A stretch of DNA of 64,000 bases, from contig JBGAGQ010000005.1 of NCBI GenBank assembly GCA_044226625.1, positions 32,001 to 96,000 on the forward strand. The letters run 5' to 3'. A program made the translations under genes and the position numbers. Below are positions 11,021 through 19,264 of this stretch, one piece after another. Source of the stretch: Thermoanaerobaculia bacterium. Its GTDB lineage: Bacteria > Acidobacteriota > Thermoanaerobaculia > Multivoradales > UBA5704. The notes below the pieces were generated by a model. It did no database searches. It saw nothing but the letters and a program-made list of their open reading frames with translations, and was not told the origin of the DNA. Position 1 is the stretch's first letter; every line of letters begins with the position of its first letter.

Positions 11021-11239
11021 CGTTGGCTACTAACTACGGCACTCCAGCCACGACCTTTTCGTTCGATCCGCTTGCGAGGGCCGCTTCGCAAGGCAAGATC
11101 GCTCGAGTCGCCGTTCCTGGGACCGCCGGCGTCCTCGCCGGCCTAACGCCTCGTCGGCGATGAACGCTCTCTCGCACTACGGCCCCGTGACTCCCTCGGG
11201 GAACCAGCCCGCTCGCACCATAGAATGCGCGCAATCATC

Positions 11240-14038
11240 ATGGCGAGCGTGTTCATCTCCTACAGCCACGTGGACGAGGTGTGGAAAGACCGCCTCCTCC
11301 GCCACTTCCGCGTCTTCGAGCGGCAGGGACTCGCGTTCTCCGCCTGGCAGGACCGCGAAATTCCGGGAGGCGGAGACTGGGAGGCGGAGATCCGCAAGGC
11401 GATGGCCGGGGCGGATGCCGCGGTGCTGCTGGTTTCGGCCGACTCGCTCGGGTCGAAGTTCATCAACGAGGTGGAGGTGCCGTACCTGCTCGGTCGCCGA
11501 GAAAGGGACGGGCTGCCGTTCATTCCGATTGTGGTAGCGCCCTGCAATTGGAAGGACCTACCGTGGCTCCAAAAGCTGAACTTGCGCCCCCGGGACGGGC
11601 ATCCCCTCTCGGGCGGAACCGATCACGAAATCGAGGACCAACTCGCGGCGATCGCGGCTGAGGTTTTCCGCCTCGCCACGAAGGTCCCGGGAACATCGGG
11701 CGGTCCGACTCGGGGAGGGGCCGTCGCCACCCGCGCCGACTGGCGTCTTGTCCATCCGTACGGCATGCCGCCGAACTTCACCGGGCGAGTGGCGGAACGT
11801 GGGCAGCTTACCGAGTGGGTGGAGGAGAACGGCCCGGCCCTGCTGGTGCTCCGGGCGCTGGGTGGCTTCGGCAAAAGCGCGCTCGCCTGGCATTGGTTGA
11901 TGAACGACGTCAATCCCTGCCGCTGGACGCGGGTGGTCTGGTGGAGTTTTTACGACGATTCCTCCTTCAATGAGTTTCTACGCGAGGTCCTGGGCTATCT
12001 CGGTGTGAATGCGGATGCGCTCTCCATTCGGGATGGAGTTCGCCAGTTGGTTGATCTGCTCCGCCGCTCGCCGGTCCTCCTCGTCCTCGACGGCTTCGAG
12101 CGTGCGCTGCGAGCATTCGCGCGGTTGGATGCCGCTTACCATTTGGACGAAGAGGAAAAGCTTTTGGGTAAGGAGGAAGACCGAGACTGCGTGAGCCTGG
12201 CGTCGGATGCGTTCCTTCGAACAGTGTCTTCCTTGCCGGGACTCGCAGGGCGCGTAATCCTAACAACGCGCCTCCGTCCGCGGCCGGTGGAGACGCGTGT
12301 GGGCGAGGTTCTTGCCGGATGTCGAGAGATCGAGCTGACAGCGCTGAGCAAAGCGGACGCAGTGGACTTCTTTCACGCGGAAGGCATCCGAGGCACGCGT
12401 GCCGAGATCGAAGCAGTCTGCGGTAGCTACGGCTTCCATCCCTTGAGTCTGCGTCTCCTGGCAGGGTTGATCGTGAAGGATTTCCGGAACCCACGAGACA
12501 TCGCCGTTGCCCAGCGGCTGGATGTTTCGGGCGATCTGGTCCAACGCAAACATCACGTCCTGGAACAGTCATACAAGAGCCTTCCCGTCAAAGACAGGCG
12601 CCTACTCTCGCGGATCGCCTGCTTTCGCGGCGCGGTGGACTACAAGGCGCTTTACGCAGCGGCGGGTGGCCTCGCGGAGAACGAAGTCGAGATCATCCTC
12701 AAGGATCTCCTCGAGCGGGGCTTGCTTCACCACGAGGAGCGCGATGGCCGCTTCGATCTACATCCCATTGTTCGGCGTTACTCCTATGACCGGCTGGGAA
12801 TGGAAGAAAAGGAAGACGCTCACAGGCGCCTCCGCGATTACTTCGCCGCGGTGCCTCCGCTCGAGAAGGTCAAGACCCTTACCGACCTCGCTCCAATGAT
12901 TGAGCGTTACCATCACATGGTACGGGCGGGAGACCTTGACAGAGCGCACGAGTTATTCCGCGATCGACTCCATGAAGAATTGTACTATCAGCTCGGCGCC
13001 TACGAGTCATGCATTGAACTCCTGCGCGCACTCCTCCCCGATGGCGGAGAATTCCAACCCCGCCTTACCAAGGAGATTGATCAGGGCTGGACACTGATTA
13101 CCCTCGCCAACTCTTACAGCCTTTCTGGTCAGCCGAAGTGGGCGCTTCCTCTTTTCGAACAGGCAGTGGCGCTCGTCCAGCGTCCGGGAGAGGAACGGAA
13201 CCTAGCAATCGCGCTTGGGAACCTAGCGTTCATGTCTCAGCATCGAATTGGTGCTTTCAGATCTGGCGAGGTCAATATTCGGCGAAGTATCGAGCTCTTC
13301 CGAGAACTCGGCGACACGCTGTATGCAGCATTTGGCTGCCAGGAGCTTGGTCGGATGCTCGGTTTTCGTGGATATTGGGAGGCAGCTGAGAACGAACTGG
13401 CGGAAGCGTTCTTGGAATTCGAAAAGAGCGAGCATGCTCAGAGGCAAGGATTTGTTTGGGCTAATCGTGCCCTTCTTTCCCTTCAGCGCCTTCGGGCAGA
13501 CGTGTCCGATAGTCAAGAAAAAATACGCCAGAGTGCCCTATTAGCCGCCCGCAGTGCCCTTGAGATGGCGAACGTATCTGCAAGGGCGGACGGCCCAAAG
13601 GAGCGCGACTTCGTCCAAGCCCACTGGCTGCTTGGCGCCGCCCTGGGCGAGAACAGAGACATCGGGCAAGCAGACCGGCATCTAACCGAAGCGCTGGAGC
13701 GCTGCCGTCGAATCAACCTCGTCGAGAAAGAAGCAGACATCCTGATCGAACTCGGCCGCCTTCGGCGGCTGCACGGTGAAAAGGCGGAAGCTCGGCGGTT
13801 AGGAGAGGAGGCGTCAGGGATCGCCGAGCGGTGCGGCTACGTGCTCCAAGGCGCCGACGCCCATCTTCTTCTCGCAGCCGTGGACCGCGACGCGGGAGAT
13901 CACGCCTCATCCTGCGAGCATGCTCTGGAAGCCAAACGCCTCGCGACCTGCGACGGCCCGCCCGATTACACGTATAAGGTGGCCTACGACGAGGCCGTAG
14001 CGATGCTAGCGGAGGGGGCACCTCCCGGCGCCCCCTAA
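11240..14038 (+). CDS. TIR - STAND (NB-ARC/NACHT-like) NTPase - winged helix - TPR protein
   Basis: VFISYSH TIR start; FTGR, Walker A LGGFGKSALA, Walker B LLVLDGFE, ILTTR, HPLSLRL, LHPIVR motifs; helical TPR C-terminus. Alternative ATG at 11225. Confidence 0.85.
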   Translation: MASVFISYSHVDEVWKDRLLRHFRVFERQGLAFSAWQDREIPGGGDWEAEIRKAMAGADAAVLLVSADSLGSKFINEVEVPYLLGRRERDGLPFIPIVVAPCNWKDLPWLQKLNLRPRDGHPLSGGTDHEIEDQLAAIAAEVFRLATKVPGTSGGPTRGGAVATRADWRLVHPYGMPPNFTGRVAERGQLTEWVEENGPALLVLRALGGFGKSALAWHWLMNDVNPCRWTRVVWWSFYDDSSFNEFLREVLGYLGVNADALSIRDGVRQLVDLLRRSPVLLVLDGFERALRAFARLDAAYHLDEEEKLLGKEEDRDCVSLASDAFLRTVSSLPGLAGRVILTTRLRPRPVETRVGEVLAGCREIELTALSKADAVDFFHAEGIRGTRAEIEAVCGSYGFHPLSLRLLAGLIVKDFRNPRDIAVAQRLDVSGDLVQRKHHVLEQSYKSLPVKDRRLLSRIACFRGAVDYKALYAAAGGLAENEVEIILKDLLERGLLHHEERDGRFDLHPIVRRYSYDRLGMEEKEDAHRRLRDYFAAVPPLEKVKTLTDLAPMIERYHHMVRAGDLDRAHELFRDRLHEELYYQLGAYESCIELLRALLPDGGEFQPRLTKEIDQGWTLITLANSYSLSGQPKWALPLFEQAVALVQRPGEERNLAIALGNLAFMSQHRIGAFRSGEVNIRRSIELFRELGDTLYAAFGCQELGRMLGFRGYWEAAENELAEAFLEFEKSEHAQRQGFVWANRALLSLQRLRADVSDSQEKIRQSALLAARSALEMANVSARADGPKERDFVQAHWLLGAALGENRDIGQADRHLTEALERCRRINLVEKEADILIELGRLRRLHGEKAEARRLGEEASGIAERCGYVLQGADAHLLLAAVDRDAGDHASSCEHALEAKRLATCDGPPDYTYKVAYDEAVAMLAEGAPPGAP

Positions 14039-14052
14039 AGCTCGACCGGCGA

Positions 14053-15243
14053 TCAGTAGTCGATGTACCCGTCCCGCGTCCGCACCCGGACTCCCGAAGC
14101 CTTCACGCGGACGTCGACCTTGTGCCAGCGGCCGTCGTTCTTGTTCGAGGTGCAGTAGTAGGAGAGGGCGTACTGCTCGCGGAGCTCTTCGAGGATGCCT
14201 CGGAAGGCGGAGGTGAAGTCTTCGTTCTTGGCGATGCGGACGATGCGGCCGCCGCTTTCGTCGATTGCCTTTTCGAGCTGGTCGAACTCGCGGTCGTTCG
14301 CCTTCCAGTTGCGCCACGCGGAGGTGAAGGACTTGTGTTTTCCGTCATCGTCGAGAGCGATCCAGTAGATCAGCGCTTGGCTCACCCGTGCCTCGCGGAG
14401 GACTTCCGACATCGGCAGCACGCTGTGGATGTCGGAGCCGTCGGAAAGCAGGACGACGACGCGGCGGCCCTGGTGCGATTCGAGGATTTTGAGCCCGGCG
14501 AAGAGGTAGTCGTTCACCGCCGAGCCGCCCGCCGCCTCGACCTTTTCCAGAGTCTTGTTGAGCAGAGCCTGGTCGTTCGTGATCGGCGTGCTCGCCATCA
14601 GGCGATCGGAGAACAGGAGGACGCTCGCCTGGTCCTCCGGGCGCATGCCCGCGACGAAGGCGCGCGCGCCCTTGAGCGCCGCGTCGATCCGCTCGCCGCG
14701 CATGCTCTCGCTGCTGTCGATCAGGAGGACCGCCGAGAGCGGCAGCTCGCCACGGTCGAAGGCGACCAGCTCCTGCTCCTGCCCATTGTCGAAGATCCGG
14801 AAATCGCTCGGGTTCAGGTTGAGCACCCGCTGGCGGTCGCGGAGCACGGTGGCGTAGAGCTGCTGCAGCTCGAGGTCGAGCCGCTCGTCGATCTGCACCG
14901 GCGAGGTGGTGAGGGCGTCTGAAGCGCTTGAGCCGGAGGCGCCGTAGGCGACGACCCGAAACTCGCGCGCAACGTTCTGGTCGCCGGCGTTCCAGGTCAA
15001 CTTGTACGGAGGCGTCGCGACCGAACCGACCGAGCGGCCGCCGACGAAGAACTCCACCCGGGAGATCGGCTCGTTGCCCGCGACCGCCGCGGTGAGCTCC
15101 GTGGGACCGAAGACCGGTTGGCCGGGCTCGGGGCTGGTGATCTTCACCTGGATCGTCGCGAAGGCGGCCTGGGCGGCGCCGAGCGCGCCAAGCCCGCAGA
15201 GCAGGAGACGAAGCGTGAGGGCGAGGTGGGGGGAACGATTCAT
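14053..15243 (-). CDS. Secreted Ig-like + VWA domain protein (acidobacterial VWFA-related type)
   Basis: Signal peptide; Ig-like N-terminus; MIDAS DSSESM, LSDGSD; C-terminal ELREQYALSY...DGRWHKVDVRV...RTRDGY. Confidence 0.85.
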   Translation of the reverse strand: MNRSPHLALTLRLLLCGLGALGAAQAAFATIQVKITSPEPGQPVFGPTELTAAVAGNEPISRVEFFVGGRSVGSVATPPYKLTWNAGDQNVAREFRVVAYGASGSSASDALTTSPVQIDERLDLELQQLYATVLRDRQRVLNLNPSDFRIFDNGQEQELVAFDRGELPLSAVLLIDSSESMRGERIDAALKGARAFVAGMRPEDQASVLLFSDRLMASTPITNDQALLNKTLEKVEAAGGSAVNDYLFAGLKILESHQGRRVVVLLSDGSDIHSVLPMSEVLREARVSQALIYWIALDDDGKHKSFTSAWRNWKANDREFDQLEKAIDESGGRIVRIAKNEDFTSAFRGILEELREQYALSYYCTSNKNDGRWHKVDVRVKASGVRVRTRDGYIDY

Positions 15244-16364
15244 CGCGCCACCCCGTCCGCGGCGGGGGCCGCGCTGACGCCGGAGGAGAGCGAAGAGGCG
15301 AGCGTCACCAAGCGGACCTTTCCCGCCGGTTCGACCACCCGGTCCGAGTCGTCGAACAGCTCGTCGGAGAAGCGGTTGTAGCGATAGCGTGAGTCGTCGC
15401 CCGGATCCGCGCCGATCTCGGCGAGGCGGTCGAGCACCGAGCGAGCTTCCTGTTGCGCCCCCTTGGCGTCCAGCACCGAGGCGAGCTGGAGCGTCAGCCG
15501 CGCCGAACCCGGGAATTTCTGGAGCGCCGCACGCAGGACCTTCTCGGCCTGCTCCGGGCGCTTGGCATCGACCTCGATCCGCGCGAGCTCCTGAGCCGCG
15601 AGCAGGCCGATCCAGGGCGCCGGGGGTACCTCGGCGAGGGGTGCCAGGAGCTTCTTCGCGTCCCCTCCGCGATCGAGGCGCGCGAGGCAGATGGCGAGGC
15701 GAAGGGCGGCTTCGGGATATTTCGAGAGGCTTTGCGGATCGCCCGAGCGCATCCTCTCGATCGCCGCGATCGCGTCCTCATAATTGCCGTTCTTTTCGAA
15801 CACGGTGGCGAGGCCGAGCAGCGAGACGCTGTTGCGTGCGTCGGCCTGCGCGGCGAGCTCGAACAGCTTCGCGGCTTGGAACGAGTCGGTCGAGACGCTG
15901 CCCAGACGGGAGATCAGGCGGCTCGCGAGCGCCGACGCTTCGGGGGTATCGACGTATTTCTTATAGAGGAGGGCTAGGTCGAGGGCGATCGTGCGGTCGT
16001 GGGTCGCAACCTGCGCGGCGCCGATGCCGCCGTGCTTCGTGTAGTAGCGGTAGGCCTCTTGGTGAAGGACCGACAGCGGAACCAGGACTTCGAGGTCGAC
16101 GGCGGCCACTTCGGAGATCACCCGCTGCTCGGCCTTGTGCAGCACCTCGCGGGTCTGCGGCGCTTCGTCGGAGATGATCGACGATTCGAACTTGACCAGC
16201 TCGGGCACAGCCCGCGCGTCGCCTGCCGCCCAGAGGCCGAGGACGGCGCGATACCCGCCTTCGAGGAGCGCCGGGTCTAGATCCGCCGCTCGGGCTCCCC
16301 CGGAAGTCAACAAGCAAAGAACGATCAGAGGCGCCCAGTTTGTGCGCGAGCGGTAAACAGCCAT
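15240..16364 (-). CDS. Secreted TPR protein
   Basis: Signal peptide after MAVYRS; TPR-like helices; stop overlaps the VWA gene start. Confidence 0.7.
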   Translation of the reverse strand: MAVYRSRTNWAPLIVLCLLTSGGARAADLDPALLEGGYRAVLGLWAAGDARAVPELVKFESSIISDEAPQTREVLHKAEQRVISEVAAVDLEVLVPLSVLHQEAYRYYTKHGGIGAAQVATHDRTIALDLALLYKKYVDTPEASALASRLISRLGSVSTDSFQAAKLFELAAQADARNSVSLLGLATVFEKNGNYEDAIAAIERMRSGDPQSLSKYPEAALRLAICLARLDRGGDAKKLLAPLAEVPPAPWIGLLAAQELARIEVDAKRPEQAEKVLRAALQKFPGSARLTLQLASVLDAKGAQQEARSVLDRLAEIGADPGDDSRYRYNRFSDELFDDSDRVVEPAGKVRLVTLASSLSSGVSAAPAADGVAR

Positions 16365-16485
16365 GTCGGATTTCCCCCGTAATGAGACGGGGAAAGAATC
16401 TCGCAATTCGGAAGGGCTCGCAACCGCCTGGGGACCGGGCCGGCCCGGAGTGCCGCCAAAGCCCGGGGAGGAGGGATGGCCGGCG

Positions 16486-16509
16486 AAAGGGGAGCGATCG
16501 CTCCCCTTT
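16486..16509. terminator. Perfect 24-bp palindrome, probable terminator of the TPR gene
   Basis: AAAGGGGAGC-GATC-GCTCCCCTTT, about 20 nt past the 16528 stop. Confidence 0.65.
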
Positions 16510-16527
16510 GGCGCATACCGGTCGAAG

Positions 16528-17835
16528 CTAGATGCTCAAATTCTCCTGCCGGCGCAAACGGCCGGACACCCTGCGGAGCAGTCGCGCGAGCTCGGACGTC
16601 GCTCGCTCGTGATCGATCGCCCGGCGCAGGACGAGCAGCGCTGCCACCGCCTCGCGGCGAATGCCGAGCGCTCGGAAGGTCTCGAGGATCTCTTCGACGC
16701 TCTCGAGAATCTCGGCGGTCCGTCCCTGCTGGAGCCAGAGCATCGCGAGATCGAGCGAAACCACGGCAGCTTCGATCGGCAGGCCGCGGCTCTCGAATTC
16801 GTCGTGGACCTCCCAGAGGCCGAGCTCGGCCGCTTCGAGGTCGCCGCGGCCCGCTTCGATCCGCCCTTCGAGCCAGCGCAGCTTCAACTGGTTGATCGCC
16901 GTCCCGCGCTGCTCGTACAGCGCCCGGCTCGCGGCGATCCAATGGGCGGCCTGTTCGTAGGCGCCCGCCTCGACCGCGCCGATCAAAAGGTTGTGGATCG
17001 CCGACAGGGCGAGGGCCGGCTCGCGGCTTGGGTCGATCTGCGCCAGGCCGTGGGCGATGTACCGGCTCGACTCCTCGAACTCGTTTTCATAGAGGAGCGC
17101 GATGCCGTGGCTGATCAGCGCGCGACCGGCGAGATGGCGCTCGCCCGCCGCCCGATGCAGCTCGTAGATCTCTTCGAGAAGCCGGCAGGCCTCGCGGAAC
17201 CGGCGCTGCGAGATGCGGAGCGACGCGGTGAGGTCGAGGATGCGGGCGTACAGCTGGCGGTCTCCGGTACCGCGCTCGGCGCGAAGCAGCGCCTCGGCGA
17301 ACGCGCTCTCCGAGCCCTGGACGTCGGCCGCGATGCGGAGGGCGTTGCCGAGCTCGGACCAGGCGCGCGCCTGGAAGTCGGCGCGATCGGCGGGGCTGCC
17401 GTCGGCGGAGCCGAGCGAGTCGGCCAGGTGGGCCGCCAGGCGGGCGAGGGTGACCATGCCGGCCGGATCGCTCGCGCGCAGGGCCCAGCTCTCGACCAGC
17501 AGGGTCGTGCAGCGCTCCCGTCCCTTGGTCAGAGGCGAGGCGAGGCGCGCCTGCTCGGCGAGCTCGATCTCGCGGTTCCTCTCGGAGATCTCCCGACGCG
17601 CCGAGGCGACGGCGCGATCGATCGGTCGATCGTAGGCCGACAGGTCGAAGGTCGGCTGCTCGCGCAGGGGGTGAAAGACCGAGCGGACCATGGGGGCGAG
17701 GAGATCCGCGCAGTGCGCGCAGCCGCGCAGGAGATGGGCGATGATCGGCTTGCCTTCACGGGGCGAGAGCTCGGCGCGCAGAAATGCCCAGAGTCGCTCC
17801 GGCTCCGGATGGGTCGTTTGAGATTCGAAGCTCAT
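16528..17835 (-). CDS. Cytoplasmic TPR protein with N-terminal ZAS-like zinc-finger (H-x24-H-x4-C-x2-C)
   Basis: HPEPERLWAFL...IIAHLLRGCAHC; rest is TPR helices (ARAWSELGNALRI, LAGRALISHG, LRWLEGRI, AAVVSLDLA); no signal or TM segment. Confidence 0.75.
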   Translation of the reverse strand: MSFESQTTHPEPERLWAFLRAELSPREGKPIIAHLLRGCAHCADLLAPMVRSVFHPLREQPTFDLSAYDRPIDRAVASARREISERNREIELAEQARLASPLTKGRERCTTLLVESWALRASDPAGMVTLARLAAHLADSLGSADGSPADRADFQARAWSELGNALRIAADVQGSESAFAEALLRAERGTGDRQLYARILDLTASLRISQRRFREACRLLEEIYELHRAAGERHLAGRALISHGIALLYENEFEESSRYIAHGLAQIDPSREPALALSAIHNLLIGAVEAGAYEQAAHWIAASRALYEQRGTAINQLKLRWLEGRIEAGRGDLEAAELGLWEVHDEFESRGLPIEAAVVSLDLAMLWLQQGRTAEILESVEEILETFRALGIRREAVAALLVLRRAIDHERATSELARLLRRVSGRLRRQENLSI

Positions 17836-17904
17836 CGAGTTGCTCCAGAACTGTCCCACCAGCGATTGAAGGATCTCACGAAATGTCCGGCCGCGTCACA
17901 ACGA

Positions 17905-17938
17905 AATCGAGATCGATCGAAATCGATCGATCTCGATT
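17905..17938. promoter_or_regulatory. 16-bp perfect inverted repeat (operator or RNA hairpin) between small-peptide and TPR genes
   Basis: AATCGAGATCGATCGA-AA-TCGATCGATCTCGATT. Confidence 0.6.
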
Positions 17939-17988
17939 CGGACCGCGACTCCGCCGAGCCTTTCGATCTCAAGGGATCCACTTGGATC

Positions 17989-18282
17989 TCAATGGACGGT
18001 TGGCGCGGACGGATTGGCGGACGCGTCGTGCGACGGCTGAAGCGGCACGTCGTTCGGGTCGATGGCGATGCCGTACTCGCCCCAGATCGAGGTGGCGGCC
18101 GACCGGCCCGTGTCCCATAGAGAGCCGAGCCAATGCGAGAGGGCGCTGGTGATCACCTCGGAAAAAGACGAATCCGCCGAAGCCGACAACGGCCGGCCCT
18201 CGAACGGAGCCGCCCAGGAGGGAGCCGAACCGAGGAACAACAACATCGCGAGTACCAGGGATCCCTTCGACTTGCTCGACAT
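17989..18282 (-). CDS. Small secreted protein / putative signalling pro-peptide (97 aa)
   Basis: GGAGGAG RBS then ATG at 18282; signal peptide MSSKSKGSLVLAMLLFLGSAPSWA; Trp-rich amphipathic segment; WGEYGIAIDPN core. Confidence 0.7.
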   Translation of the reverse strand: MSSKSKGSLVLAMLLFLGSAPSWAAPFEGRPLSASADSSFSEVITSALSHWLGSLWDTGRSAATSIWGEYGIAIDPNDVPLQPSHDASANPSAPTVH

Positions 18283-18458
18283 CGCGCAACTCCTCCCGCA
18301 GACCGGCCGGCCAGTTCCGACGTGGCGCGGAAAAATTCTACGTTCTGAGAAATGGGGTGCGGCCGCAAGCCATTCCGTGACAAGCAAATCGGCGCGAACG
18401 CAACGACGAAGCGACTTGGGTCAAATCTCCCGGGCCAGGGCGTTTTGCCCTGGCCTGA

Positions 18459-19127
18459 TCAGGTCGTTTTGGTCGCCAGCGGGTGGCGGACGTCACGCCC
18501 GTCGACGAAGTAGACGACATCTTCGCCGATGTTGGTCGCGTGGTCGGCGATCCGTTCCAGGTTGCGCGAGATCAGCAGCAGGTGGAGCGCCCGGCTGACC
18601 GTCTTCGGATCCTCGATCATGAAAGTCAGCAGCTCGCGGAAGATCTGCTTGTAGAGCGCGTCCACCTCGTCGTCCCGCCGACAGACCGCCTGCGCCAGCT
18701 CGGAATCACGCCGCACCAGGGCGTCGAGACTCTGGCGGACCATCTCCTGGACCAGCCGAGAGAGGTGGGGCAGGTCGATATACGGCTTGAGCGGCGGCTG
18801 GTCGACCAGCTGCTCGACCGACTGGGCGATGTTGACCGCCGAATCGCCGATTCGCTCGAGGTCGCTGTTGATCTTCATCACCGCGACCAGGAACCGCAGG
18901 TCGATCGCGATCGGCTGGCGCAGGGAGAGCGCCGCATGGCAGAGCTCGTCGATCTCGATCTCCATCCGGTCGATGTCCTGATCGCTCGCGATCACCTGGC
19001 GACAGAGCTCGCGGTCGCGCTCGAGCAGCGCCCGAGTCGCTCGCGCGACCATCTCCTCGACCTTGCCTCCCATGCGCAAGAGACTTTGGCGAATGCGGTC
19101 GAGGTCTTGATCCAATCGGCGTTCCAT
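18459..19127 (-). CDS. phoU: Phosphate signalling complex protein PhoU
   Basis: QPIAIDLR, DLERIGD, RDDEVDALY, LERIADHATNI motifs; start MERRLDQ with AGGAG RBS. Confidence 0.95.
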   Translation of the reverse strand: MERRLDQDLDRIRQSLLRMGGKVEEMVARATRALLERDRELCRQVIASDQDIDRMEIEIDELCHAALSLRQPIAIDLRFLVAVMKINSDLERIGDSAVNIAQSVEQLVDQPPLKPYIDLPHLSRLVQEMVRQSLDALVRRDSELAQAVCRRDDEVDALYKQIFRELLTFMIEDPKTVSRALHLLLISRNLERIADHATNIGEDVVYFVDGRDVRHPLATKTT

Positions 19128-19215
19128 GCCTTCTCCTGAACGTTCGGGCGAAGCCAACCGAGCCCAACGGCCGATCATGGTACTCCGCCGCCCGCCGCGG
19201 GGAAACCTCCGGGAG

Positions 19216-19233
19216 GTGAATCCCGCGTGACAG
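19216..19233 (-). promoter_or_regulatory. Putative Pho box upstream of phoU
   Basis: Minus strand CTGTCAC-GCGG-GATTCAC, half-sites 11 bp apart. Confidence 0.45.
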
Positions 19234-19264
19234 CGGGGTGGCAAACCGACTCGGAGGGGATCCC

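Follow-up and report, generated by a model that had tools for sequence, protein, structure and literature searches.

A duplicated gene pair for a TPR-linked anti-sigma-type protein and a small exported DPxG protein in the Thermoanaerobaculia, a candidate peptide-receptor module

The 64,000-nucleotide (nt) stretch of contig JBGAGQ010000005.1 analyzed here, called the window below, belongs to a member of the Thermoanaerobaculia (Acidobacteriota) with a genome of 6.6 Mb in 133 contigs and 97.9% completeness (G000 in our coordinates). On its minus strand lie two co-oriented genes, the first for a small protein with the marks of an exported pro-protein and the second, starting after a 153-nt spacer downstream, for a protein in which a zinc-binding anti-sigma (ZAS) type domain precedes a superhelix of tetratricopeptide repeats (TPRs). 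An earlier note, drawn from the letters of the window alone, had described a 97-residue open reading frame (ORF) with ribosome-binding site (RBS), signal peptide, Trp residues and a WGEYGIAIDPN core, a co-oriented cytoplasmic TPR protein directly downstream, and a palindrome that ends the pair. All of these elements are in place: the small ORF at 17989-18282 (minus strand), the TPR gene at 16528-17835 (minus strand), whose product has no transmembrane segment, and palindrome arms within 16483-16512. The reading we favor is that of a peptide-receptor module resembling the RRNPP systems (Rap/NprR/PlcR/Rgg/PrgX/AimR), with control of a sigma factor as its output, and we give it about an even chance of being correct. 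The two genes and the parts of their products are as follows.

17989-18282, minus strand: small ORF, 97 residues plus stop, predicted exported pro-protein of the DPxG family (family hidden Markov model, HMM, E 4.6e-21)
18211-18282, minus strand: signal-peptide-like N-terminus, residues 1-24 (MSSKSK, hydrophobic core, SWA/AP), by a hydropathy heuristic
18043-18087, minus strand: conserved linear core IWGEYGIAIDPNDVP, residues 66-80, from ortholog and paralog alignments
16528-17835, minus strand: ZAS-TPR gene, predicted soluble protein, 435 residues plus stop
17542-17835, minus strand: N-terminal anti-sigma-type domain, residues 1-98, with putative zinc ligands H9, H34, C39 and C42, by profile match
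16543-17523, minus strand: TPR superhelix, putative sensor domain, residues 105-431, by AlphaFold2 (AF2) model and Foldseek

The zinc-ligand motif of the larger protein, H9-x24-H34-x4-C39-x2-C42, which the earlier note had compared with ZAS domains, has well conserved ligands: in 50 homologous sequences H34, C39 and C42 are invariant, and H9 and P10 are at least 90% conserved. A profile built from 28 N-termini and searched against the PDB matched ChrR (2q1z_B) with an E-value of 1.9e-8 and 38 bits, profile positions 5-96 aligning with residues 2-94 of the chain, and further matched RslA (3hug_B, 1.5e-4), DdvA (8rlz, 5e-4) and RsiW (0.022). The four His/His/Cys/Cys ligands align with those of ChrR across a one-residue gap, and ChrR was also matched by the profile of the whole family (E 2.9e-4). 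Since the profile finds these four anti-sigma factors with the ligands aligned, the N-terminus is, as judged from profile comparison, a genuine anti-sigma domain of the ZAS type whose H-x-C spacing is longer by one residue, and the comparison made in the earlier note is borne out.

No transmembrane segment was detected in the window protein, where the highest 19-residue hydropathy mean is 1.44, nor in any of the 18 zinc-finger paralogs of the genome, where it is at most 1.51, and the ZAS-TPR protein is therefore considered soluble and cytoplasmic. In the AF2 model (predicted local distance difference test, pLDDT, 87.6; predicted template-modeling score, pTM, 0.71; residues 111-380 in blocks of 91-98) three short helices and a long helix at residues 65-98 lead into a TPR superhelix of about nine repeats that spans residues 105-431. 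The best Foldseek match of the TPR part was LGN/Pins (E 1e-7, template-modeling score 0.55-0.60), followed by RapF (3e-5), RapI (5e-5), the Rap protein of phage phi3T (1e-4) and kinesin light chain; LGN/Pins, the Rap proteins and kinesin light chain hold extended peptides in the TPR groove. With the profile of the whole family, RapF is reached at no better than 1.6e-4, and that in a single TPR stretch. Family models see little of this domain: Pfam TPR_12 matches the window protein below threshold (7e-6), NCBIfam returned nothing meaningful for it (the TPR region of AfsR at E 6.5e-8, far below the cut-off), and PF17874 (MalT-like TPR) appears in precomputed annotation of several homologs and as a weak match in the paralogs.

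The ATG of the small ORF follows a GGAGGAG at 7 nt, and its N-terminus, with a Lys-rich start and a hydrophobic run before the presumed cleavage site, resembles a Sec signal peptide by heuristic criteria only. The mature protein is of low complexity except for W51, W56, W67 and the core IWGEYGIAIDPN (WGEYGIAIDPN). Public metagenomes hold 18 homologs at 46-66% identity, all of them named hypothetical. In the resulting set of 19 orthologs the only invariant segments are the signal peptide and the DPxG core: residues F16-A24 are invariant except for residue 22 (8/9 positions; signal core LFLGSAP-W-A), as are I66, W67, Y70, G71, I72, A73, I74, D75, P76 and P80, while the 40 residues between signal peptide and core, as well as the tail, vary freely. 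Across an alignment of 20 paralogs, D75 is the sole invariant residue after Met1, with G71, P76 and G78 at least 90% conserved, which gives G-x-x-(I/L)-D-P-x-G as the unit of the small family. In orthologs and paralogs alike, conservation of the IDPN core thus far exceeds that of the remaining mature sequence. Such conservation is what a short linear motif carried by a disordered protein would show; the pLDDT of the small protein is about 40 in the complex model described below. A GGAG-type RBS precedes the chosen start in 18/20 genes of the small family, the exceptions being a gene on contig C60, for which the upstream sequence was not captured, and one on C8, which has GAAAGG only.

Beyond the genome, a profile search of 1.84 billion representative sequences (clusters at 50% identity) gave 1377 matches at E<=0.001, 46 of them at E<=1e-10. 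Among the best 150 of the 1377, all but one (149) span 81-166 residues, the other being a protein of 1331 residues with seven matched stretches. Tandem repetition of two to six DPxG units was seen in 135 of these best 150, the unit is closed by two cysteines (C-x-(I/L)-D-P-x-G-x-C) in 114 of them, and from the end of the last unit to the C-terminus the median distance is 4 residues. On its sequence, such an arrangement looks like a multi-copy pro-peptide. Existing family collections barely register these proteins: Pfam, NCBIfam and PADLOC gave no family match for the window small protein, the sole real match among nine other members was Pfam DUF6799, for member P0129, and the same family (PF20606) matched 3 of the best 150 representatives at E<=0.001. 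In the ESM Atlas only unnamed Acidobacteriota clusters were matched, with scores of 0.89-0.90.

Within this genome the two families are largely found together. The TPR family comprises 22 full-length paralogs and 3 short ones, and the small-family HMM recovered 19 ORFs at E<1e-4 among the 85,574 ORFs of at least 35 residues; for 16 of them one of the 25 TPR-family genes is no more than about 1 kb away, a 17th has a TPR fragment next to it where a contig ends, and the remaining two stand alone. These orphan small genes are those on C60 and at C125:105990, and orphan sigma genes occur on C6, C123 and C1. Counted from the other side, 17/22 full-length TPR paralogs have a small partner, and the pairs occur in every arrangement, with the small gene upstream, downstream, divergent or convergent. 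Small ORFs with a signal peptide and a GxxΦDPxG motif are thus strongly enriched beside TPR homologs, here and in related genomes, and because of this enrichment the statement in the earlier note that such small proteins recur beside TPR genes in Thermoanaerobaculia proves correct.

No recurrent third gene accompanies the pairs: when 119 coding-like ORFs within 5 kb of the 25 loci were clustered, no family occurred at more than three loci, and neither a maturase, a radical-SAM enzyme, a protease, a transporter nor an ABC exporter recurs among the neighbors. This result bears on the idea that the small protein is the precursor of a bacteriocin or of a ribosomally synthesized and post-translationally modified peptide (RiPP), the TPR protein serving in maturation, immunity or as a scaffold. 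The small proteins are Cys-rich and repeat-bearing, and the many diverged copies per genome would suit this idea; they carry, however, classical Sec-type signal peptides instead of leader peptides, their partners bear bona fide regulatory output domains (anti-sigma or HTH_XRE), PADLOC and NCBIfam returned no relevant match, and with no maturase, radical-SAM enzyme, protease or ABC exporter recurring by the 25 loci we consider this explanation very improbable.

The link to sigma factors is seen in other members of the family. In this genome, five of the eight close sigma paralogs adjoin TPR-family genes (on C76, C20 and C124) with overlapping stop and start codons; on C76 the order is sigma-TPR, sigma, small, sigma-TPR, again with overlapping stop and start codons. 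That locus (L014, G000:C76:151000-161600) holds three paralogous sigma genes of the extracytoplasmic function (ECF) type, two ZAS-TPR genes and one small DPxG-like gene with the motif IQIDADG, and upstream of it an ORF resembling sigma-54 activators, a label given from reading the sequence. Outside the genome, the TPR family was found with the family member P0001 as query in 9/121 genomes sampled from the class, with a profile as query in 11/301 genomes sampled across the phylum, every one of them belonging to the class (scoring was limited to five candidates in each genome), and with a helix-turn-helix (HTH) type query in 26/41 genomes of the order; homologs of both families in public records are labelled Thermoanaerobaculia or Acidobacteriota. 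A small-family ORF (E<=0.01) accompanies 17/25 TPR loci of related genomes and 18/28 loci in a search of the order, three of the latter repeating loci of the former set. In the two most distant families (15 loci), which have the canonical H-x3-C-x2-C, a gene with sigma-70 regions 2 and 4 lies directly upstream of the TPR gene at 12/15 loci. The other families of the order have a sigma ORF at 14/21 non-HTH loci, eight of which are small-sigma-TPR triads. In the triads L044, L045 and L119, of family f3, the small ORFs end in G-A-(R/K)-(I/L)-E-D in place of DPxG.

The window module is one copy of a widely duplicated two-gene unit of the Thermoanaerobaculia, whose two genes are inherited together. 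As to its history, we infer as the simplest order of steps that a pair of ECF sigma factor and soluble ZAS-TPR anti-sigma factor came first, that the small gene was then gained, and that sigma-less pairs of small and TPR gene subsequently multiplied in the family.

A further class of paralogs provides what we regard as the most telling comparison. Four of the 22 (on C57, C13, C5 and C46) carry an HTH_XRE domain (HTH_31, 8e-11; HTH_3) in place of the anti-sigma domain, and hhalign identifies the TPR domains of both classes as homologs (probability 100%, E 3e-71 over 362 columns, with a GNARR motif in common). All four HTH paralogs, as well as 7/7 HTH loci in relatives, have a convergent downstream small gene with Cys-closed DPxG loops. 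The model of the HTH type (pLDDT 91.7) again has LGN and Rap proteins as its best fold matches; RapJ (4.8e-5) is a further Rap structure among the significant matches of the two models. Going by these alignments, one putative sensor scaffold carries two alternative output domains, each class with its own flavor of small protein, and no other finding speaks as strongly for a TPR sensor tied to the small protein as this domain swap with matched small partners. Sister genomes of the same family seem to carry far more copies of the HTH type than this genome with its four: G041, G419, G065 and G097 have 23-29 matches each to an HTH-TPR query (E<=1e-25), against 7 listed for G000 in the same search.

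A promoter motif common to all small genes was not found; the elements recovered are specific to a class. Small-gene promoters of the HTH class have a palindrome, GGGGA..TCCCC, over the -35 region together with a CCATACT box (C57:129 and C13:11009 in this genome, and loci L095, L096, L120 and L122 in relatives). This promoter-like element occurs once more in this genome, at C40:41146 (minus strand), before a 56-codon ORF with a Trp-rich helix and no signal peptide, which the C57 regulator may also control. Four zinc-finger-type pairs (C76:29418, C109:45720, C39:4935 and C125:67621) instead share an element of about 35 nt (GCGTTGCC..CGCGGGC..GGGGCCAATACCG) located 45-55 nt ahead of the start codon, for which a role as promoter, operator or leader structure is possible.

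These operator-like sites bear on the main rival to a peptide-receptor module, namely that the small exported protein is a regulated product, for instance antimicrobial, metal- or calcium-binding or surface-active, and that the TPR protein senses another cytoplasmic ligand or protein. Under this alternative the small gene, which comes first in the small-sigma-antisigma triads, would be co-transcribed and autoregulated, and the palindrome at the HTH-class promoters, found also before an unrelated 56-residue ORF, would be an ordinary operator; operon position and operator-like sites are accounted for equally well. It is further favored by the Cys-closed loops of the 114 representatives, which fit an extracytoplasmic function, by a weak resemblance of one representative to a defensin family, by the lack of any importer or protease linked to the pairs, and by the ability of MalT-like TPR domains, PF17874 being present on several homologs, to sense small molecules. 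On the other hand, the pairing persists where the sigma gene is gone and whichever way the two genes are turned, and co-transcription alone is therefore insufficient to explain it. Conservation of nothing but a short linear motif in a fast-evolving disordered protein is unlike a folded effector or an arms-race bacteriocin, the tandem units resemble pro-peptide polyproteins, and the predicted complex described next scored 0.41 against 0.01 for the best control, which is weak support. We take the regulated-product explanation to be possible, though somewhat doubtful.

A complex of the two window proteins was predicted once, with the family alignment of the TPR protein and the mature small protein (residues 25-97) as input. 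It scored 0.45, 0.41 and 0.38 where the best control reached 0.01, and the result is rated as weak support; a minimum of 36% of contacts is common to the runs, and the partner has a pLDDT of at least 38. In the calibration of the method, the mark was reached by 58/80 solved complexes and 2/110 mismatched pairs, and scores of 0.60 or less were those of 7 of those 80 solved complexes and of both mismatches. Complex prediction, one of the checks suggested in the earlier note, gave weak support.

The complex model, which used the mature part only and gave weak support, also counts among the points for a third explanation, in which the TPR protein binds the unexported precursor in the cytoplasm, as a chaperone or secretion monitor would, and the sigma or HTH activity reports export flux. 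TPR proteins commonly chaperone unfolded clients, uptake across two membranes would not be needed, and the signal peptide is unusually conserved (8/9 positions of F16-A24 invariant in 19 sequences). Twenty or more diverged copies per genome would nevertheless be hard to justify for a general secretion monitor, and the Cys-closed loops point outside the cytoplasm, which makes precursor sensing improbable in our view.

For the peptide-receptor module itself we propose the following scheme, in which the TPR domain would be the sensor and the N-terminal domain the output. A peptide containing the DPxG core would be released from the exported pro-protein, be returned to the cytoplasm and bind in the TPR groove. 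Binding would alter the hold of the anti-sigma domain on an ECF-type sigma factor, in the case of the window copy one encoded elsewhere, and the switch would change the transcription of genes among which the pair itself probably counts. For the HTH class, modulation of DNA binding by the peptide is proposed instead. The genome has a single gene for an OppA-type binding protein, which permits, and does not demonstrate, import of a peptide. More tentatively still, and with some doubt on our part, a Thermoanaerobaculia genome might contain about 20-50 private peptide channels of this sort, in which DPxG peptides, some of them cyclised by a disulfide, would bind ZAS-TPR sensors (with sigma release) or HTH-TPR sensors.

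Several observations weigh against this scheme. Regarding the output, no sigma gene lies in the neighborhood of the window copy, so that its anti-sigma activity is an assumption, and about 15 zinc-finger-TPR paralogs of the genome likewise have no adjacent sigma gene. Of the circuit proposed in the earlier note the genetic and structural parts are borne out, with an ECF-type sigma gene in the modules of relatives; the sigma factor that the window copy would control is presumed to be encoded elsewhere. The window clade has H-x4-C-x2-C where the canonical spacing is H-x3-C-x2-C, the latter being found in distant relatives, and for the window protein alone Pfam zf-HC2 gives E 0.037 and 14.6 bits against a cut-off of 22.2. 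Regarding the receptor, the likeness of the modeled fold to RRNPP receptors is generic to TPR superhelices, Rap proteins and PlcR come after generic TPR proteins in the fold searches, PlcR ranks 43rd (E 1e-3) among the fold matches of the HTH-type model, and the complex score falls in a range where, according to the tool, wrong predictions outnumber right ones unless the prior is strong.

The small protein and its pairing raise further difficulties. The window copy has Asp at residue 78 (18049-18051), where Gly is found in 18/18 other orthologs and at least 90% of paralogs, and may be a variant or weakened copy. DPxG is identical in all paralogs and therefore cannot itself encode specificity, and the Cys-closed loops suggest an oxidising compartment and would be reduced after import. 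Export by Sec combined with a cytoplasmic receptor calls for uptake of the peptide across two membranes, and no route for it is encoded near the pairs at the 25 loci. No small partner was detected for 4/22 full-length TPR paralogs, with one more sharing that of its neighbor, and no small ORF was detected at any of the 15 loci of the two most distant families. The co-variation of the partners for which the earlier note had called is weak over all paralogs (Spearman 0.216 between the distance matrices, 159 of 10,000 permutations being as high) and does not extend to the zinc-finger class, where a mirror-tree comparison gave no correlation (Spearman 0.10, 2137 of 10,000 permutations as high).

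The sequences around and between the two genes of the window contain several candidate control elements.

18317-18390, minus strand: conserved upstream block, candidate promoter or regulatory region, with GAAC-N19-CGTC, by ortholog comparison
18290-18297, minus strand: RBS GGGAGGAG of the small ORF, read from the sequence
17879-17965, minus strand: intergenic hairpin followed by UUUCGUUGU, candidate attenuator between peptide and receptor genes, by folding against shuffles
16483-16512, minus strand: palindrome (hairpin), 16 nt past the ZAS-TPR stop codon, end of the pair

The upstream block is nearly identical in the ortholog locus L039 of the same genus, and the flank farther upstream has diverged. 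Its GAAC-N19-CGTC, kept in the ortholog, was not recovered as a family-wide motif, and to see in it an ECF-like promoter with a long spacer is a guess from the letters; a scan of 16300-18600 for the sigma-70 promoter consensus gave no sites. The intergenic spacer, folded over 156 nt, reaches -66.4 kcal/mol (z -2.56; 2/200 shuffles as stable), with a perfect 16-bp stem at 17904-17939 and a U-rich run after it, and this hairpin, as an attenuator, may determine how many receptor transcripts are made for each peptide transcript. The palindrome, with arms at 16483-16497 and 16498-16512 (15 + 15 nt, 93% complementary), folds at -26.4 kcal/mol (z -2.81; 1/200 shuffles folds equally well) and is no canonical intrinsic terminator, lacking a U-tract and being absent from the list of the terminator scan.

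Metatranscriptome contigs cover 16510-16939, 17023-17358, 17401-17974 and 18020-18306 and so touch both genes, the contig at 17401-17974 running through the spacer hairpin. Of six contig pieces, five match the window at 99% identity or more and the sixth at 95-99%; carry-over of DNA is possible, and such contigs give neither transcript ends nor levels. In the RNA run X2 the depth is zero over 15200-16468 and 0.49 in the bin 18302-18442, and holes in the contigs prove nothing.

Upstream, the pair is preceded by genes for PhoU (18459-19244; Pfam PhoU 1.2e-53), whose stop lies 177 nt before the small ORF on the minus strand, and for a histidine kinase. Downstream follow genes for a secreted TPR_19 protein and a VWA protein, neither of them related to the pair. 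The opposite strand (11225-14038, plus) encodes a protein of 937 residues that joins a TIR_2 domain (3.8e-13) at the N-terminus to TPRs at the C-terminus, an architecture of the STAND-like kind known from defense or signaling and likewise unrelated to the pair.

The module combines features of systems that are familiar from separate contexts. With the class I ZAS proteins, such as ChrR (with sigmaE in Rhodobacter sphaeroides), RslA, RsiW and DdvA, it shares homology over the N-terminal 95 or so residues, the conserved His/His/Cys/Cys ligands and, in many relatives, a position directly downstream of an ECF-type sigma gene. It differs from them in that the sensor would be a cytoplasmic TPR superhelix instead of the cupin of ChrR or a transmembrane and periplasmic domain, in the H-x4-C-x2-C spacing, in the absence of a sigma gene from most copies of the genome, and in the linked gene for a small exported protein. 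RsrA is soluble like the ZAS-TPR protein and has no sensor domain. The Rap-Phr systems of Bacillus likewise place a cytoplasmic TPR receptor by a small gene with a Sec signal, with the conserved part near the C-terminus of its product and many diverged pairs per genome; the output there is a phosphatase or anti-activator surface in place of an anti-sigma domain, the host here is a diderm acidobacterium, and DPxG is common to all paralogs. Membership of the receptor in the RRNPP family was considered and set aside, as no such Pfam or NCBIfam match was obtained, and the comparison is one of analogy only.

The HTH class shares its domain order, its adjacent gene for a small secreted peptide and its promoter palindrome with PlcR-PapR, NprR-NprX, Rgg-SHP and AimR-AimP. 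This likeness applies to the HTH paralogs and not to the window copy, PlcR ranks low (43rd) by fold, the small proteins have tandem Cys-closed loops of nine residues, and the TPR domain of the HTH class is homologous to that of the anti-sigma proteins. MalT and AfsR similarly use a TPR superhelix as the sensor of a transcription regulator, and PF17874 is found on homologs of the window protein; the latter, in contrast, has no STAND ATPase or SARP domain, and has another output domain and a linked small gene.

Release of ECF sigma factors is known to occur by proteolysis, redox change, partner switching and protein contacts, and we know of no release by a gene-encoded peptide, nor did the literature searched hold a counter-example. 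An anti-sigma factor that joins a ZAS domain (match E 5e-4) to a TPR-containing sensor is DdvA of the DdvA-DdvS system of Myxococcus xanthus, which is described as spanning the membrane, carrying a periplasmic TPR-CHAT protease-like domain and acting by regulated proteolysis (PMC11506125); the window protein differs from DdvA in being soluble, in lacking a CHAT domain and in having a small gene linked to its own. In the sections available of the ECF reclassification, 10 ECF groups are predicted to have soluble anti-sigma factors and variants that escaped detection are expected, while TPRs are mentioned there only for extensions of ECF42 and an ECF267 FecR-like protein (PMC7826278). Peptide signaling through cytoplasmic TPR receptors is treated, in the introduction of a further paper, as a speciality of Firmicutes, their phages and plasmids (PMC10075063). 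A description of the module was not found in full-text searches of the literature, the supplementary tables of PMC7826278 and the RRNPP_detector paper lying outside that scope.

The module is real, conserved and uncharacterised, and it combines two known kinds of system, its function being a proposal only. If the more tentative picture of many private peptide channels is true, peptide quorum sensing of the RRNPP type would have arisen independently in a diderm phylum, and the ZAS-TPR protein would be the first anti-sigma factor under the control of a genetically encoded peptide ligand. Under the peptide-receptor reading, the paralogs would form a natural series of orthogonal sensor-output pairs, since one TPR scaffold serves either an anti-sigma or an HTH output. 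Even if the small proteins are instead regulated products, they constitute a large uncharacterised family of exported proteins that is barely covered by Pfam and NCBIfam. Should the peptide-receptor reading hold, it would give the Acidobacteriota, abundant and poorly understood bacteria of soil and sludge, a peptide language that passes from cell to cell or from the envelope to the cytoplasm.

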